Below, in pieces: positions 19,206 to 34,308 of a DNA stretch of 37,769 nucleotides. The notes beneath the pieces are model-generated. The model did no database searches. It saw only the letters and a program-made list of their open reading frames with translations, and was not told the DNA's origin. Every line of letters begins with the position of its first letter. Position 1 is the stretch's first letter. The position numbers and the translations under genes were made by a program. Source of the DNA: a virus; UHGV virus genome UHGV-1372291; one strand, given 5' to 3'.

Positions 19206-19514
19206 CTATAAATCTACTTCTATTTTTTTTAATTGCTTTTCTAAAACTGCTATCATTTTATCTACAAATTCAGGTGTTTTAATACCTTGATAGTTCCCAT
19301 TTTCTTTTATTTTTTTGTGATATTCCAACTCTTGCCCCCAAATTTGTTTTAACATTTTTGCATACATTCTACATATTGCCTTTTTAGTTAGATCATCTAT
19401 GTCTTTTCTTTCTTTATTTTCTTGGTATAAATTATCCCATTCAGTTACAAAATACCCCTCCATTCCTGAGTCTAATTCTAATATAAATACATTTAAGCCT
19501 TTTATCTTTTCCAT
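19206..19514 (-). CDS. hypothetical protein (102 aa)
   Basis: ORF immediately downstream of the capsid terminator/attenuator hairpin. Confidence 0.3.
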   Translation of the reverse strand: MEKIKGLNVFILELDSGMEGYFVTEWDNLYQENKERKDIDDLTKKAICRMYAKMLKQIWGQELEYHKKIKENGNYQGIKTPEFVDKMIAVLEKQLKKIEVDL

Positions 19515-19533
19515 ATTTTCCTCCTTATAAAAA

Positions 19534-19561
19534 ATAGAGGGAAAATGCAGTATCCCTCTAT
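19534..19561 (-). terminator. stem-loop (attenuator/terminator) after the major capsid gene
   Basis: ATAGAGGGA-aaatgcagta-TCCCTCTAT, a 9-bp perfect stem. A T-run follows on the minus strand. Confidence 0.5.
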
Positions 19562-19598
19562 TCAGTTGTAATGGTTAAATTAAATTGTTGCTTCCTGT

Positions 19599-20864
19599 CT
19601 ATTCTGATTTTTTAGCTGCTTTTGTAGTAGTTGTTGCTGGTGCTTCTTGTGTTTCAGTAACTGCTGCTTGTTTGTTAGCTGCTCTTAATCTTTCTAGTTC
19701 TAACTCTTTTTCTACTCTCTCCATTCTCATTTTTTCAATCTCTTTTTCCTGCTCTAGTTGTTCATTATTTGCTAACGACATTGTATTCATAGCCATAGCA
19801 GATACTGGTTCTACTGAGGCTGCAGCTGCTCCTGTTGTTCTCTTATACTTGAAAAAGAATACTCCCTCTGGATTTAATAATTCTGTTGAGTTATACACTT
19901 CAACATCTAATAAGTATGATTTTTTATCAGCTATATAGTTAGCTTCTGGTGTTACTGATACATCTTTGTTATCTTGTCCAAAACTTCTTTCAACCATAAC
20001 TACAAAATATCCTACTCCTTCACTACCTGTTGGATATAAAGTTTTGTCAAATTGGAATAAGCTTTCTACATGTCCACCCATCAACATAGATAATGGTTTT
20101 CCTGTTTTTCTTGTTTCTCCCTCTCCAAAATCTTTACTTGAGAATCTTTCAGCATTTGCAAGCTCTGTATTTCCTTCTACACCAGACACTATAGCTATTC
20201 TCAATCCTTGAGCTTCTGCTGCTTCTTGAGCTTGTAACATCATTTGTCTGAATAGTTTTATATTTTCTGGAGTATCAAACTCTTTTGTTTCATCTCCGTA
20301 AAATTGACTTTCTGGAATAGTTAAATCAAATGTTTTGTTGTTATTGTCATAAACTGTTCTTTTCTTATTTGTTATACAATCTTTGAAAAGTTCAGCTATT
20401 CTTTTAGCACATTTTCCACGAGTTGCAGCTATTTGTGCATCTATTATTACCGATTTTTCATCTAGTTGAGAACGGTCGAAATCTCTTCTCTTAACATATA
20501 CAGGACATTCCATTCCTGTTGGATATACTCTAATACTTTGTAAGAAAGTTCCTGTATCTTGTCCTTTAACCTCTCCTGGTGTATAATTAGGTCCAGACAT
20601 AGCTTGCTTATCATCTATATCTCTAGCCTCTAATCTTCCAGATACATAGAATAAAGAATAAGCCTCTTTTGTTGAAGCTGATTTTTCAAACCAACCCTCA
20701 AGTGGCATTTTGTTTGTTGTATTTAAGGCTCTTTTTACACTATTTACATATTTAGCCTGTTCTCCTGCTGAAAGGTTTACGTTTCCGTATTCATATCCTC
20801 CAGCTCCAGCAAATAGCTGGATATTTAATCCTGTGCTTCCTAATAAAGTTTTTTCATTTCTCAA
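19599..20864 (-). CDS. major capsid protein (with cleavable N-terminal L27-like leader)
   Basis: 421 aa immediately downstream of the scaffold. N-terminus 'MRNEKTLLGSTGLNIQLFAGAGG'. The terminator hairpin directly after it is typical of a highly expressed capsid gene. Confidence 0.55.
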   Translation of the reverse strand: MRNEKTLLGSTGLNIQLFAGAGGYEYGNVNLSAGEQAKYVNSVKRALNTTNKMPLEGWFEKSASTKEAYSLFYVSGRLEARDIDDKQAMSGPNYTPGEVKGQDTGTFLQSIRVYPTGMECPVYVKRRDFDRSQLDEKSVIIDAQIAATRGKCAKRIAELFKDCITNKKRTVYDNNNKTFDLTIPESQFYGDETKEFDTPENIKLFRQMMLQAQEAAEAQGLRIAIVSGVEGNTELANAERFSSKDFGEGETRKTGKPLSMLMGGHVESLFQFDKTLYPTGSEGVGYFVVMVERSFGQDNKDVSVTPEANYIADKKSYLLDVEVYNSTELLNPEGVFFFKYKRTTGAAAASVEPVSAMAMNTMSLANNEQLEQEKEIEKMRMERVEKELELERLRAANKQAAVTETQEAPATTTTKAAKKSE

Positions 20865-27539: not shown

Positions 27540-27641
27540 AACACCTCGTTTTTACACTTTTTTATTTATATTATAGCACAAGCTATTAAATTTAGTAAAT
27601 AACCTAGTTTTTATTTTTAAACTTTTTTATTTAAAAAACTA

Positions 27642-27670
27642 TTGACAAATTAAAAAAAATTCTATATAAT
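27642..27670 (+). promoter_or_regulatory. sigma70 consensus promoter (TTGACA-17-TATAAT) for rightward early operon
   Basis: ttgaca at 27642-27647, exactly 17 nt, then tataat at 27665-27670. RBS aggag at 27723 and ATG at 27736. Confidence 0.7.
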
Positions 27671-27735: not shown

Positions 27736-28251
27736 ATGAAAAAATTATTAAATTATTTAGGGTGCAGAAGTAAACAAGACTTAATATATCAATTTAAAAA
27801 TAGCGATTCCGAAGAGATAGCAGAGTTGAGAATGGCTTTTGAATTAATAGCAGAGGATAGAGTAATGGATGATGAAATAAGATTAAAAGATAAGAAAAGT
27901 TTACTTGATTTTCTTAAATTCAAAGTAGGTTTTAAAGAAAGAGAAGAGTTTGTAGTAATTTTCTTAAATAATTACAACGTAATGACAGGATATGAAGTAT
28001 TATTCACAGGAACAATAGATAAAAGTGCTGTATATCCAAGAGAGATAGCAGAAAGAGTTTTTAAATATAAAGCTAAGGGAGTAATATTTGCACATAATCA
28101 TCCAAGCGGAAATTTAAGACCAAGTAAGCAAGATATTCAAATAACAGAACATATGCAAGAGTTCCTGGAAATGATAGATGTAAAACTTCTTGAGCATATA
28201 ATTATCACAAAAGATGGACATTTTAGTTTTTTACAAGAGGGAATAATTTAA
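27736..28251 (+). CDS. RadC-like JAB-domain protein
   Basis: 'FAHNHPSGNLRPSKQDIQITEHM' contains the RadC/JAMM HNHPSG signature. Confidence 0.75.
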   Translation: MKKLLNYLGCRSKQDLIYQFKNSDSEEIAELRMAFELIAEDRVMDDEIRLKDKKSLLDFLKFKVGFKEREEFVVIFLNNYNVMTGYEVLFTGTIDKSAVYPREIAERVFKYKAKGVIFAHNHPSGNLRPSKQDIQITEHMQEFLEMIDVKLLEHIIITKDGHFSFLQEGII

Positions 28252-30723: not shown

Positions 30724-31060
30724 AAAGAATCTTGAATAACATATGACGATTAAAAAAGCATCTTATATGGGGTTAAAAATCTGGATACAGTAGTATAATA
30801 TACTTTTAGGTATAAGTCAATATCTTTTTAAAATTATAACACTGTGAAATTTTGTCAAAGTAATTTTTAAGTATTTATTTTATTGGTTTTTATAGTGTGA
30901 AGTTTTGTCAGTTAAAAACTACAAAATCCAGAATATAACTACATATAATTTTATAATTGTAGTTAATTCTTTTCCCTTTTAGAAGAATCTTTATTCTTTT
31001 ATTCTTTTATATATTTCGGCACCTTCAAAAGCTAGAAAAAAAGCCACTTTATAAAAAGAT

Positions 31061-31181
31061 AAAGGTACAAAATCCAACTTTCAAAGGTACAAAATCCAGA
31101 AAATAAAGGTACAAAATCCAACTTTTAAAGGTACAAAATCCAATTATAGAAGGACAAAATCCAATTATAAAGGTACAAGAT
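31061..31181 (+). repeat. iteron array of plasmid-type origin (6 direct repeats, 22-bp period)
   Basis: AAAGGTACAAAATCCA(A/G) starts at 31061, 31083, 31105 and 31127. A degenerate copy is at ~31149 and a partial one at 31169. An extra copy is at 31295-31311, and an inverted half-copy (TGTACCTTT) is at 31220-31228. An AT-rich stretch spans 31180-31290. Confidence 0.75.
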
Positions 31182-31316
31182 ATTTTATAATGTACTTTTA
31201 ACGACATTTATTAGAATGATGTACCTTTATTATAAATTTATATAATAGTTAAAAACTTAGTGTAAATAGGGGTTGAAGAGTATTTTAAAAAGATAAAGGT
31301 ACAAAATCCAGAAAAT

Positions 31317-31361
31317 AAAGGTACATATATATTGACATTGTACCTTTGATTAAGTTATACT
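31317..31361 (+). promoter_or_regulatory. rep promoter with operator palindrome AAAGGTACA-N13-TGTACCTTT overlapping -35 TTGACA
   Basis: Perfect 9-bp inverted repeat made of iteron half-sequence. Embedded ttgaca at 31332-31337 and a tatact -10-like element at 31356-31361. Confidence 0.55.
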
Positions 31362-31390: not shown

Positions 31391-32515
31391 ATGAGTCAAG
31401 AAAAATATAATCTAATACATCATAAAGATTTCCATAATCTCCAATTACAAAATTATTCAGTAAAAGAAAGAGCAGTTTTTTTAGCTCTTTGCTTAAAGAT
31501 TATGGAACAGGAAGATGAAGTTGTAACTTTTAAAGTTTCAGAGATTTCAAAAATTGCAAATTATTCTGCAAGAAAAAAAGGAGATAATATTTATAGTTTT
31601 TTAAAAGAATTAAGTGATAAGCTTTTAAAATTACAGGTTATGCAAATAAGAAAAGATGAAGGATTTACAAATATGGTCTTGTTTCCAACCTTTTCAGTAG
31701 ATGAGAAAGAAAAAACAGTTAGAATAAGAATAAATCCAGACTATAAATATTTGTTAAATCATTTACAAGCTCCTTATACAATTCAAGCTTTGATAGAATA
31801 TTCTAATTTAAAATCTGGATATTCACAACTAATGTATTCTATTTTGAAAAAGTGGAATAAAATAAAAAAAGTAACTATAACTCTTGAAGATTTTAGAAGA
31901 GAATTAGGAGTTCCAGAAAGCTATGATACAGCAGTTATAAATAAAAGAGTATTGCCTCCTATTATGAAAGAGTTACCACAATATTTTGAAGGTTTGAAAG
32001 TAAAAAAAATAAAAGATGGTAAATTTATAAGTGGGTTTGAGTTTACCTGGAAAGATAACAAGGTTGATGATGTAGTAGTTGATGAAGAGGAAATAGAGAT
32101 TTCAGAAGAGTTACTATCAGCTATCGAGAAAGCAGAGAAAAATAGATTTATAAAACCTTTCTTAACTGATGATAATATAATAAAACTTTTAGATAAATTT
32201 AGCCAAGAGCAATTAGAAAAAGGATTGAAAGCTGCTTATGATTTAATTAAAACAGAATTTACAAGTCTTAATTATTTGATAAAAGTTATTGAAGATAGAT
32301 TGAATAAACCTAAAAGAAAAATAGTTATAAGAAGAACTAAGGAAGCAGAAAAAATAAAAGAAGTTGAAGAGCCAGTAGTCAAGAAAAAAACAACTCCACT
32401 AACTAATGAAGAATATCAAAATGCTATGAAAATATATCAAGCTACTGGAGAGGATTTTGGTTATGAACCAGAGGAAGTAAGAGAGTATATAAAAAAATAC
32501 AAGGATTTAATATAG
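31391..32515 (+). CDS. rep: iteron-binding replication initiator (Rep_3/RepB-like)
   Basis: N-terminal 'NLQLQNYSVKERAVFLALCLKI' matches the Rep_3 NxLxxAxYxLSxxExRL motif. Placed immediately downstream of iterons and an AT-rich region. Confidence 0.65.
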   Translation: MSQEKYNLIHHKDFHNLQLQNYSVKERAVFLALCLKIMEQEDEVVTFKVSEISKIANYSARKKGDNIYSFLKELSDKLLKLQVMQIRKDEGFTNMVLFPTFSVDEKEKTVRIRINPDYKYLLNHLQAPYTIQALIEYSNLKSGYSQLMYSILKKWNKIKKVTITLEDFRRELGVPESYDTAVINKRVLPPIMKELPQYFEGLKVKKIKDGKFISGFEFTWKDNKVDDVVVDEEEIEISEELLSAIEKAEKNRFIKPFLTDDNIIKLLDKFSQEQLEKGLKAAYDLIKTEFTSLNYLIKVIEDRLNKPKRKIVIRRTKEAEKIKEVEEPVVKKKTTPLTNEEYQNAMKIYQATGEDFGYEPEEVREYIKKYKDLI

Positions 32516-32524
32516 GGGGGTAAA

Positions 32525-33283
32525 ATGAAAATAATATCATTCATAACAGAAAAAGGTGGCACTGGTAAGACTACTGGTGCCAGAGAAGTTGCTGGGGTAT
32601 TATCTCTAGTTCATAACAAAAAAGTTTTGCTTATTGATTGCGACTTTCAACAAAATCTAACTGAAAGTTTAATAGAAGCAGACCAAGAAAAAAATATATT
32701 TAGAGCTATAAAAGAGAAAGATTTAAAAGGAAATATAATTCCTATTGAAAGAGATGGAAAACATATATTAGATTTAATACCTGCAAGTCTTAATTTAAAG
32801 GATTTAGAATATAAAAAAGATAGTGTTGATATGGAGATGATTTACCTGGATTTAAAAAGGGGACTAGAGCAACTCCAAGAATATGACTATATAATTATAG
32901 ATTGTAGACCAGATATGAGAGCAATAGAAAGGGCTGTGTTAAAGTGTAGTAATTATGTTATCACTCCTGTTGAAGCTCATCTATTTAGTTTTAGAGGGTT
33001 TGAATTATTGGAGAACTTTATACAAGCTCTTAAAAAAGATTTAAACACTCCATTCATTCATTTTGGTTATATAAATAGGCTACAAAATGATAAAGAGATA
33101 TTAGAAGCCACTGAAGATGTCAGAAATTCTTTTGAAAACATATTAGATACTCCTATAAGAGATAATCTTAAAATATTTAAAGCCTCACAGACAGGACATT
33201 TTATAATAGAATATAGTTCTACATCAAATGGGGCTAAGGATTTTAAAGCTCTTACAAAGGAGTTGTTAAATAAATGGCAATAA
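32525..33283 (+). CDS. parA: ParA/Soj-family partition ATPase
   Basis: Deviant Walker A 'KGGTGKTT' at the N-terminus; 252 aa. Confidence 0.8.
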   Translation: MKIISFITEKGGTGKTTGAREVAGVLSLVHNKKVLLIDCDFQQNLTESLIEADQEKNIFRAIKEKDLKGNIIPIERDGKHILDLIPASLNLKDLEYKKDSVDMEMIYLDLKRGLEQLQEYDYIIIDCRPDMRAIERAVLKCSNYVITPVEAHLFSFRGFELLENFIQALKKDLNTPFIHFGYINRLQNDKEILEATEDVRNSFENILDTPIRDNLKIFKASQTGHFIIEYSSTSNGAKDFKALTKELLNKWQ

Positions 33284-33939
33284 AAATAAATAGAAAACCT
33301 ATAATTTTAAAAAAGAAAGAAAATACAGAAGTAATTATTCCAGAAAAAAATGACATAGAAGATATATTGAAATATGATTATAACAAATTGGAAAATTTTT
33401 CAGATGATGATAAAAATCAATTAATTATATTTGAGAAAAGTATTATCACTAAAAAAGAAAATATCTCTTCTTTAGCACTACAAATAGGACAAAACTTAGA
33501 AGAGGCAAGAAAACTATTTGATAGATACTCTGAAAATCCAAGTTCATATATGGAGTGGTACCAAGCTTTAGGATTTAATAAAGACCAAGTATCACTACTT
33601 AGAGGGAGATATAAGTTATCTTTAAGCTATCCACAATACAACAATTTAATTTCAGACTTTTCAGACAGAGAAGTAAAAGCTTTAGTGAATAAAAAGGTTA
33701 ATGTAAGAATCCTTGAGAATATTTTATCTTCTGGAATAAGAACAGATAAAGAGATAAGAAAAGCTATTTCGAGCATGCTCGAAATAGAAGATGCCGAGAT
33801 AGTAGAGGAATCTGAAAAAGATAAGCTGGTATCCAGACTATCGGAGGTAGAGGCGAAAATCAGAAAATTAGAGGAAGAGTTGAAAGAATTGAAAACTGTT
33901 AAGGCTGAACTAAAAGAAAAAATAAAGGGGTTGAGTTAA
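33274..33939 (+). CDS. putative partition DNA-binding protein (ParB/ParG-like adaptor)
   Basis: Overlaps the parA stop. Basic N-terminus and a coiled-coil C-terminus. Assignment is by position only. Confidence 0.4.
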   Translation: MAIKINRKPIILKKKENTEVIIPEKNDIEDILKYDYNKLENFSDDDKNQLIIFEKSIITKKENISSLALQIGQNLEEARKLFDRYSENPSSYMEWYQALGFNKDQVSLLRGRYKLSLSYPQYNNLISDFSDREVKALVNKKVNVRILENILSSGIRTDKEIRKAISSMLEIEDAEIVEESEKDKLVSRLSEVEAKIRKLEEELKELKTVKAELKEKIKGLS

Positions 33940-33953
33940 TGAAATAAAAAAAT

Positions 33954-33986
33954 AGCTGGAAATAAATCCAGCTATTTTGATTTTTT
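33954..33986 (+). terminator. rho-independent terminator of rep-par operon
   Basis: AGCTGGA-aataaa-TCCAGCT followed by attttgatttttt. Confidence 0.7.
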
Positions 33987-34270
33987 GAAGTCGGTTTTCT
34001 CCGCTACACATACTTTCGGTGCCTCTAGCGAGTCCCTAGCAATAGCAACCTTCCTTAGCTTTTGTTCCAAGCTAGCCTATTTCGACATGGTGCCTTATTT
34101 TCCACATCTAGTTACTATTCGGAGTAACACCCTAGTCAATATTCGGATTGACTCCTAGTCTAATTAAATAGACATTCCATTTTTCGCTGCAAATAAATTA
34201 TATCACATCAACAAAAACATTTCAAGGAATATTTTAAGAACGAGCCTTTTAAATCGTTTTTAAGAGGTTT

Positions 34271-34308
34271 AAAAAAGAGAGGTATATATTTACCTCTCTT
34301 TTTGTTTT
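34271..34308. terminator. bidirectional terminator at the end of the lysis cassette
   Basis: AGAGAGGTA-tatattt-TACCTCTCT with an A-run before and a T-run after. Confidence 0.6.

Follow-up and report, generated by a model that had tools for sequence, protein, structure and literature searches.

The virus genome UHGV-1372291, a stretch of 37,769 nucleotides (nt) that was analysed over its whole length and is referred to here as the window, is a low-GC phage-plasmid of ~37.8 kb. On its plus strand, genes for a Rep3-family initiator, a ParA-type ATPase and a protein of 221 amino acids (aa) that belongs to no Pfam family form a replication and partition operon (rep-parA-221aa), after which come a holin, an endolysin-like protein and tail genes on the minus strand. 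The subject of this study is the island between this operon and the lysis genes, which we read as a probable cassette for a structured small RNA (sRNA); its features are collected in Table 1.

In a preliminary description made from the letters alone, the interval 33990-34270 had been singled out as a GC-rich, CTAG-dense, non-coding island bracketed by two terminators. The composition was borne out, with 100-nt windows over 33950-34149 having a GC content of 0.40-0.47 vs 0.26-0.30 in the flanks, and the 190 nt at 33990-34179 having 0.426 vs a window mean of 0.299 (sd 0.052), which places them in the top 1.6% of windows of the same size. This is not the maximum of the window, a region of collagen-like repeats at 1-700 being richer, and the extent first proposed held for ~33990-34180, the remainder (34181-34270) consisting of AT-rich promoter and upstream DNA. 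All six CTAG tetramers were found (34025, 34036, 34072, 34108, 34132 and 34155); six in 134 nt (34025-34158), as compared with at most four elsewhere in the window, correspond to P ~0.012 by random placement and P ~0.0008 against composition-matched shuffles of the RNA itself. Both repeated motifs and both internal hairpins noted earlier were likewise present, and the repeat is more aptly seen as a tandem of three hairpin units, 23-24 nt in length, each of which ends with CUAG on the minus strand. The two flanking terminators, a bidirectional one with its stem at 33949-33978 and an inverted repeat at 34272-34303, were also recovered. What had been overlooked were the strand of the RNA, its promoter, and the fact that the supposed terminator of the par operon is also the terminator of the RNA and lies inside the cassette.

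Transcription signals and coding potential of the island

On the minus strand, a sigma-70-type promoter with an extended -10 element points toward the hairpin at 33978-33949. Only three sites in the 37.8-kb window, both strands included, reach a promoter score of at least 11/12, and the other two are found just ahead of the early operon (27642) and rep (31332), respectively. Because these two precede real operons, the scan is specific here, and the site at 34225-34197 is very likely a real promoter. The hairpin that it faces belongs to an intrinsic terminator that has seven consecutive U on the minus strand and pair probabilities of 0.87-1.0; alignment with relatives places this terminator within the cassette, and it is predicted to end both the rep-parA-221aa operon and the sRNA. 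The positions of promoter and terminator delimit an RNA of ~245 nt (~34190 to ~33945) that would start at G34190, 7 nt past the -10, and end in the U-tract after the terminator. As in an independent bacterial sRNA gene, a promoter of its own and an intrinsic terminator were found on one strand, around the predicted short non-coding transcript. The second terminator (34272-34303), a 16-bp inverted repeat that is 94% complementary and has T runs on both sides, is common to the lysis operon; in relatives without the island it is the sole terminator for the rep-par operon.

The island had been said to contain no open reading frame (ORF). Mechanical ORFs do exist (57 aa on the plus strand, 33985-34158; 32 and 33 aa on the minus strand), and none of them looks coding. 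The 57-aa ORF is open in both alleles of the island described below (57 and 58 aa, the difference being a 3-nt indel that keeps the frame), but its codon differences between the alleles are 3 synonymous to 14 non-synonymous, vs 39 to 17 in the adjacent gene. Its TTG start lies inside the T-tract of the terminator, with neither a ribosome-binding site nor a plus-strand promoter, and a search for protein homologues was negative. The minus-strand mini-ORFs either have no ribosome-binding site or are not conserved. By codon differences, signals and conservation, the 57-aa plus-strand and 32-aa minus-strand ORFs were rejected as coding, and the island RNA is predicted to be non-coding.

A covariance-model search, as the preliminary description had proposed, assigned the RNA body to no family: Rfam 15 gave no match in the whole window at gathering thresholds and none to the RNA body at E <= 10 in searches of the region, the RNA body and the second allele, the sole sub-threshold matches (E <= 10) being terminator hairpins. 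No tRNA or tmRNA was found by ARAGORN.

Table 1. Positions of the cassette, its predicted RNA elements and the adjacent replication and partition genes in the window
Feature	Position	Strand	Description	Basis or remark
Whole swap-in cassette	33946-34242	-	297 bp: terminator, RNA body, promoter and ~17 bp upstream	Alignment with ORF-carrying relatives
Sigma-70-type promoter	34197-34225	-	-35 TTGAAA (34225-34220), 17-nt spacer, extended -10 TGaTATAAT (34205-34197)	11/12 matches plus TG
Bidirectional intrinsic terminator	33942-33978	both	12-bp stem, 6-nt loop, T/U runs on both sides	Called on both strands
Predicted transcript	33944-34190	-	~245 nt	Positions of promoter and terminator
Hairpin A	34158-34173	-	GUCUA-UUUAAU-UAGAC, then UAG	Pair probability 0.91-0.93
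Hairpin B	34134-34153	-	AGUCAAU-CCGAAU-AUUGACU, flanks CUAGG and AGG	Block kept in both alleles
Hairpin C	34111-34128	-	GUUACU-CCGAAU-AGUAAC	Tandem paralogue of B (D1 repeat, 79% identical)
Hairpin D	34084-34108	-	GAUGUGG-AAAAUAAGGCA-CCAUGUC	Pair probability 0.86-0.91; stem covaries
Hairpin E	34056-34074	-	(UA)GCUU-GGAACAA-AAGC(UA)	Pair probability 0.74-0.96 in the window
3' domain	33990-34055	-	Purine-rich; holds the second AGGCACC and two further CCGA motifs	
Rep3-family initiator	31391-32515	+		Protein family scan
ParA-type ATPase	32525-33283	+		Protein family scan
221-aa partition-operon protein	33274-33939	+	No Pfam family	Protein family scan

A second allele and the structure of the predicted RNA

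Among the compared loci, a second allele of the island (L139, the same as L158) was found beside a 221-aa protein 94% identical to that of the window. Identity between the two elements is ~0.92 in the coding background and 0.90-0.93 in the 3' half of the RNA, and falls to 0.67-0.73 in the hairpin domain and 0.55 in the promoter region. Allele 2 keeps the -35 and the TG -10, with the promoter spacer and the upstream DNA ~45% diverged. Unchanged within the diverged block are the -35, the TG and -10, the start TTGCAG, a 30-nt block comprising hairpin B with its CUAGG flanks, and a 15-nt stretch at the hairpin D loop.

A structure of six helices (hairpins A-E and the terminator) was proposed for the RNA, and all 41 of its 41 pairs form in both alleles. 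Seven pairs vary, all of them in hairpins C and D, three by double changes (U-A to C-G, A-U to G-C and U-A to G-U) and four by one-sided wobble changes. When the 3' partners were slid by 1-3 columns as a control, 23-48% of the cells paired and 0-1 double changes were obtained. The G-U pairs fit the minus strand only, as they would be A-C mismatches on the plus strand, and this agrees with the orientation of the promoter and with the lower minimum free energy (MFE) of the minus strand (-47.8 vs -38.3 kcal/mol for the plus strand). The secondary structure is thus backed by compensatory substitutions, as in sRNA genes, with a support that is modest, coming from two alleles.

Individual hairpins differ in how they have been kept. 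Hairpin A has received an 11-nt apical insertion in allele 2, which extends it without breaking it, and the block of hairpin B (GACUAGGAGUCAAUCCGAAUAUUGACUAGG, 30 nt) is 100% identical between the alleles within a segment otherwise 67-73% identical. Hairpins B and C, which share an identical CCGAAU loop in the window allele, differ from each other at 5 of 24 positions, and four of the five differences make up two compensatory pairs (A-U to C-G and C-G to U-A); compensatory differences around an identical loop are the signature of a folded single strand and not that of a protein operator. Between the alleles, hairpin C has one U-A to C-G and one G-C to G-U change. Five of the seven stem pairs of hairpin D differ, two by double and three by one-sided wobble changes, and all still pair, with the 11-nt loop (AAAAUAAGGCA) invariant. 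The stem of the terminator is identical in the two alleles and its loop is changed. Short motifs are reiterated along the RNA, with four copies of CCGA and two of AGGCACC in both alleles and four to six of CUAG. When the window allele is folded singly, the MFE structure has 34119-34110 paired over a long range with 34050-34041 in place of hairpin C, but hairpin C is favoured by covariation and in the consensus fold.

Invariant elements and preserved pairing within a diverged block form a pattern that is not expected under drift. Judged by this comparison, the unit appears to be under selection for its promoter, its hairpin geometry and particular loop sequences.

Distribution of the cassette and its phage-plasmid background

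In alignments with ORF-carrying relatives, homology breaks off after TAATGAAAT (33945), where the 221-aa gene has just reached its stop codon, and is regained at AGCCTTT (34243); the same boundaries emerged when the island was searched by blastn against all compared loci. The cassette replaces an 85-aa ORF of the relatives, the first two codons of which survive as ATGAAATAA. Nearly all contigs with an identical 221-aa protein or holin carry this 85-aa ORF, sometimes together with a 94-aa ORF, and the 85-aa ORF stands in for the island in dozens of contigs whose 221-aa protein and ParA are 100% identical. The cassette itself is carried by the window, by L113 (an identical copy) and by L139/L158 (the diverged allele), and an nhmmer profile of the two alleles searched against all 167 loci (1.34 Mb) returned these four known copies only. 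Terminal inverted repeats or a target duplication were not found at the cassette ends, and on this ground a miniature inverted-repeat transposable element or an insertion sequence (IS) remnant was rejected.

Searches outside the compared loci gave little. No match to the island or to 24 kb of the window was obtained by blastn and megablast against INPHARED and PLSDB, nor to sub-fragments at E <= 10. A degenerate two-loop pattern (CCGAAT...CTAG...CCGAAT) scanned in IMG/VR, GTDB genomes and JGI metagenomes gave chance matches and a coding 24-nt tandem repeat, and would miss allele 2. Five exact or near-exact blocks scanned in IMG/VR had no or chance matches; one of these blocks matched allele 2 only.

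In more distant relatives, the same place holds a 132-aa protein and an NYN-domain protein, nothing, or a DUF3800 protein with a 200-aa protein. With such varied contents, the slot that follows the partition genes acts as a hotspot for defence genes or other cargo, of which the island is one optional, self-contained piece. The 132-aa protein and NYN nuclease were seen in the slot in L140-L142. The DUF3800 and 200-aa pair corresponds to the PADLOC candidate defence system PDC-M04A/B (E 1.7e-75 and 7e-43, respectively); PDC-M04A (DUF3800) and PDC-M04B are located at 3750-5044 of L005 and at ~10798-12092 of L162-L166, which are related phage-plasmids of 43-49 kb.

The nearest Rep proteins are those of plasmids of Cetobacterium and Fusobacterium varium, and one homologue of the 221-aa protein carries the label Fusobacterium mortiferum; the host lineage of the phage-plasmid is Fusobacterium-type. 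In human-gut assemblies the element is common, as circularly permuted contigs of ~37 kb. Elsewhere in the window, a perfect 12/12 sigma-70 consensus promoter (TTGACA-17-TATAAT, 27613-27642) lies upstream of the plus-strand early operon, the first gene of which encodes a RadC-like JAB protein (27736-28251). The GC-richest part of the window, 54-707, consists of tandem repeats of period 9/18/27/45 with CCTTGnnnn on the plus strand; from 225 on they fall in a minus-strand ORF of 459 aa (225-1604), in which they would encode collagen-like Gly-X-Y repeats and which is presumably a tail fibre gene. An IS110-family transposase (DEDD_Tnp_IS110) and an IS21 IstB-like gene are located at 19280-20449 of the related 49-kb phage-plasmid L162, which also has tyrosine integrases and a resolvase, none of them present in the window.

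Possible functions of the cassette

We give a probability of about 0.6 to the reading that 33946-34242 is an autonomous accessory cassette for a minus-strand non-coding RNA of ~245 nt that would act in trans as a decoy or regulator. According to this reading, a strong constitutive-type promoter with an extended -10 would drive the RNA from the minus strand, and a Rho-independent terminator would end both this RNA and the convergent rep-parA-221aa operon. The 5' half would fold into a row of four hairpins (A-D), the stems of which would be maintained by compensatory change, and would present invariant single-stranded elements, namely the CCGAAU loop and flanks of hairpin B and the AAAAUAAGGCA loop of hairpin D. 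Sequence and comparison show that the cassette has been swapped in where relatives carry the 85-aa ORF, PDC-M04, the NYN nuclease or nothing; that the RNA would act in trans via its displayed, reiterated loop motifs is an inference. From the strong promoter, the repetitive multi-hairpin design and the defence-type cargo location, decoy or titration is the leading guess, and we tentatively suggest a high-copy RNA that sequesters a protein or RNA factor of the host or of a rival element in a conflict. As to which role is most likely, the decoy is ranked first, though it is itself less likely than not, and a base-pairing regulator follows closely.

Several observations speak against this reading or limit it. 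The start, the end and the very expression of the transcript are deduced from sequence signals, and the decoy mechanism is conjecture based on how the cassette is built and where it lies. With two distinct alleles only, the covariation rests on seven changed pairs, and a shuffle control, in which 65 of 500 shuffles reached the observed value, can carry no information for a pair of sequences. The folding z-score of the RNA body is weak (-1.0 for the minus vs -1.2 for the plus strand), so that thermodynamic stability alone gives no support, and better z-scores obtained in other calculations are driven by the terminators. Allele 2 has lost two of the six CTAG sites, its hairpin C loop is CCGAUUGUU, unlike that of the window allele, and it keeps the inner 4 bp alone of hairpin E, which is weakly supported. 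The 3' domain, in which no hairpin of the proposed structure falls, is, at 90-93% identity between the alleles, conserved like the coding background (~92%). Complementarity of the sRNA to targets in the phage or its relatives did not exceed chance. Homologues beyond the two alleles were not found with the searches described, of which the genome and metagenome pattern would miss allele 2; as allele-2-like homologues escape it, the narrow distribution is not firmly established.

Three readings had been offered in the preliminary description, and the structured small RNA is the one that gained support, from a minus-strand promoter and terminator that are both kept in the diverged allele and from the compensatory stem changes. 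The other two, a parS-type centromere and a recombination or packaging site, fall because identical Par proteins and complete genomes occur without the island. A centromere bound by the 221-aa protein and placed downstream of parB, as in P1, would suit an island that lies directly after the partition operon and has inverted and direct repeats, much like the P1/F-type parS or sopC centromeres, and one copy of CTATTTCGA, an arm of a palindrome in the 221-aa gene, is located at 34077-34085. Unlike those centromeres, however, the island is entirely dispensable in replicons with 100%-identical 221-aa and ParA proteins, and its variation has the pattern of an RNA hairpin: allele changes are compensatory within one strand, G-U pairs included, and hairpins B and C vary in their arms around a conserved 6-bp centre, the reverse of a dimer operator, so that conserved half-sites were not observed. 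The CTATTTCGA copy is, moreover, lost in allele 2, and every relative has two sites that are better candidates. One is an array of AAAGGTACAAAATCCA, at least six copies with 22-bp spacing and probably replication iterons, at 31056-31332, directly upstream of the 11/12 promoter (31332) and the Rep3 gene. The other is a perfect 24-bp palindrome (CTATTTCGAGCATGCTCGAAATAG, 33764-33787) inside the 221-aa gene. In relatives whose protein is only 50-62% identical, its central 8 bp have changed symmetrically, which alters the encoded amino acids but preserves the palindrome, and the outer arms CTATTTC/GAAATAG do not vary; the true centromere (a parS in parB) may lie here, or the palindrome may form an mRNA hairpin. 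These iterons and this palindrome thereby replace the island as the likely cis-acting sites of the replicon, and a centromere in the island is extremely unlikely. Least probable of all is a site for site-specific recombination (att or multimer resolution) or for terminase (pac/cos). The cluster of CTAG palindromes and the hairpins in non-coding DNA would accord with it, but complete, circularly permuted relatives of ~37 kb exist without the island, the window proteins that were scanned include no integrase or recombinase, the cassette ends have neither terminal inverted repeats nor a target duplication, and two of the CTAG sites are lost in allele 2.

If the island does encode an RNA, other modes of action have to be weighed. 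Prophage-encoded base-pairing sRNAs are common, and the D loop, the CCGAAU loops or the 3' domain could pair with host or phage mRNAs and alter their translation or stability; a promoter of its own, an intrinsic terminator with a U-tail and an invariant loop closed by a covarying stem are what such an sRNA would have. In the window allele, the segment CAUGUCGAAAUAGGCUAG (34072-34091) is complementary to 33761-33778, the left half of the palindrome in the mRNA of the 221-aa gene, over ~15 bp interrupted by two bulges. This complementarity is largely lost in allele 2, with the palindrome itself unchanged, and is therefore probably a coincidence. No significant complementarity was found in transcripts of the phage or its relatives, and an RNA of 245 nt that reiterates its motifs exceeds the usual seed sRNA in both length and repetitiveness; we hold a base-pairing role to be possible but rather unlikely. 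The convergence of the transcript with the rep-par operon also raises the idea of a conditional leader, in which an RNA sensor would gate the terminator and read-through antisense to the 221-aa gene, parA and rep would switch off maintenance. The segment AAUAGUAACU (34119-34110) can indeed pair either within hairpin C or with GGUUGCUAUU (34050-34041), the two being mutually exclusive, and GCUAUU is complementary to the 5' arm of the terminator, AAUAGC. But the terminator is strong (12 bp, seven U, pair probability near 1.0), the would-be antiterminator amounts to ~6 AU-rich bp only, no riboswitch or leader family matched at E <= 10, and no covariation bears on the alternative helices, all of which make the leader very unlikely. 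A type I toxin-antitoxin pair, with the 57-aa ORF as toxin and the minus-strand RNA as fully overlapping antisense antitoxin, the two making up an addiction module beside rep/par, is less probable still. The ORF is open in both alleles, and the antisense layout and the site beside maintenance genes follow a hok/sok-like logic, but the codon differences given above do not indicate purifying selection; the ORF lies downstream of a strong terminator, starts with a TTG in a T-tract without a Shine-Dalgarno sequence or a plus-strand promoter, has no clean transmembrane helix and yielded no protein homologue. Lastly, the island could be a non-functional remnant, in which a captured promoter and a piece of foreign DNA are left to drift at a recombination hotspot. 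Its very narrow distribution (two alleles in a minority of contigs), the failure to find a homologue elsewhere, the weak folding z-score and a 3' half conserved no more than background would be in line with this; invariance of the promoter hexamers, hairpin B and the D loop in a block of 55-73% identity, in which all stem substitutions keep pairing, argues against it and renders it quite improbable.

Among known systems, the predicted RNA comes closest in general kind to the trans-acting sRNA "morons" of phages and prophages, such as DicF and the AgvB/StxS-type sponges, with which it shares a promoter, a short non-coding RNA and an intrinsic terminator arranged as optional, independently transcribed cargo between conserved modules. 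It differs from them in having no relationship by sequence or Rfam family, in its Fusobacterium-type host, in its larger size of ~245 nt and in its 5' domain of tandem hairpins. The RNA has no known family and represents a familiar general kind, a phage/plasmid-borne sRNA moron, known so far from two alleles of one gut phage-plasmid lineage.

Typical CRISPR repeats are 28-37 nt long; the island units have 23-24 nt and no repeat-spacer-repeat layout. In these respects they are unlike Racrs and viral CRISPR-like RNAs, which are defined by mimicry of the host CRISPR repeat and which resemble the island in being RNA-only cargo of mobile elements, with conserved hairpin units as decoys and a defence-related locale (PMC10651486; bioRxiv 10.1101/2024.10.29.618823). 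Sponges of the CsrB/RsmZ type likewise reiterate a short motif, partly in loops, behind a strong promoter; a CsrA sponge was rejected, GGA occurring 8 times vs 4.75 expected (P = 0.07) and only once in a loop. We know of no binding code that CCGA, AGGCACC or CUAG would match.

Phages are known to carry antitoxin mimics, and the tandem direct repeats of the island RNA, with the conserved junction CUAG|G, recall type III antitoxins. The repeats of the latter (ToxI, CptI, TenpI) are 31-62 nt long, occur in 1.9-5.6 near-identical copies and are followed by a toxin gene, and type III systems are frequent in Fusobacterium (PMC3401426). The island RNA departs from the defining features of a type III antitoxin: its units have 23-24 nt, hairpins B and C share 79% identity and differ by compensatory changes, and what follows on the minus strand is only the antisense of the 221-aa gene in place of a toxin gene, which a phage mimic would not require. 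TIGR arrays have 36-nt units with box C/D motifs and dual spacers beside a Nop-domain Tas protein (PMC12045711). A TIGR-Tas array was also rejected, the units of 23-24 nt being self-complementary stems without box C/D motifs, and no Nop or Tas protein was found among the scanned neighbour proteins. Finally, AAUAAGGC...CAUG.CGAAAU has what we take to be a local resemblance to trans-activating CRISPR RNAs (tracrRNAs). This identity was rejected as well, the covariation placing AAAAUAAGGCA in the loop of hairpin D and the nexus-like pairing failing in allele 2; the Rfam tracrRNA model gave no match, and cas genes were not seen among the window proteins scanned.

A more specific form of the decoy reading, which we offer as speculation and consider unlikely, is that the cassette represents a new class of RNA-only module for counter-defence or competition between elements. 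Its RNA would be made constitutively, and the tandem hairpins, with their conserved CCGAAU loop, CUAG junctions and invariant 11-nt loop, would imitate and titrate some immune or addiction component that recognises RNA, belonging either to Fusobacterium or to rival phage-plasmids. The titrated component may be a CRISPR repeat-binding protein, a type III toxin or an NYN/PIN RNase. The cassette shares its hotspot with the PDC-M04 candidate defence system or the NYN nuclease of sister elements.

To our knowledge, few sRNAs have been characterised in Fusobacteria, which appear to lack the classical sRNA chaperones, and we know of essentially no studies of Fusobacterium phage-plasmids. As identical flanking genes occur with and without the cassette, natural plus/minus isogenic backgrounds are available, and the 297-bp RNA-only cassette is a clean, compact test case at a hotspot that elsewhere holds candidate defence genes. 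Should a role as decoy or regulator in conflict not be true, the RNA would be one further orphan phage sRNA; should it be true, the cassette would add a new RNA family to the few RNA-based counter-defence tools.

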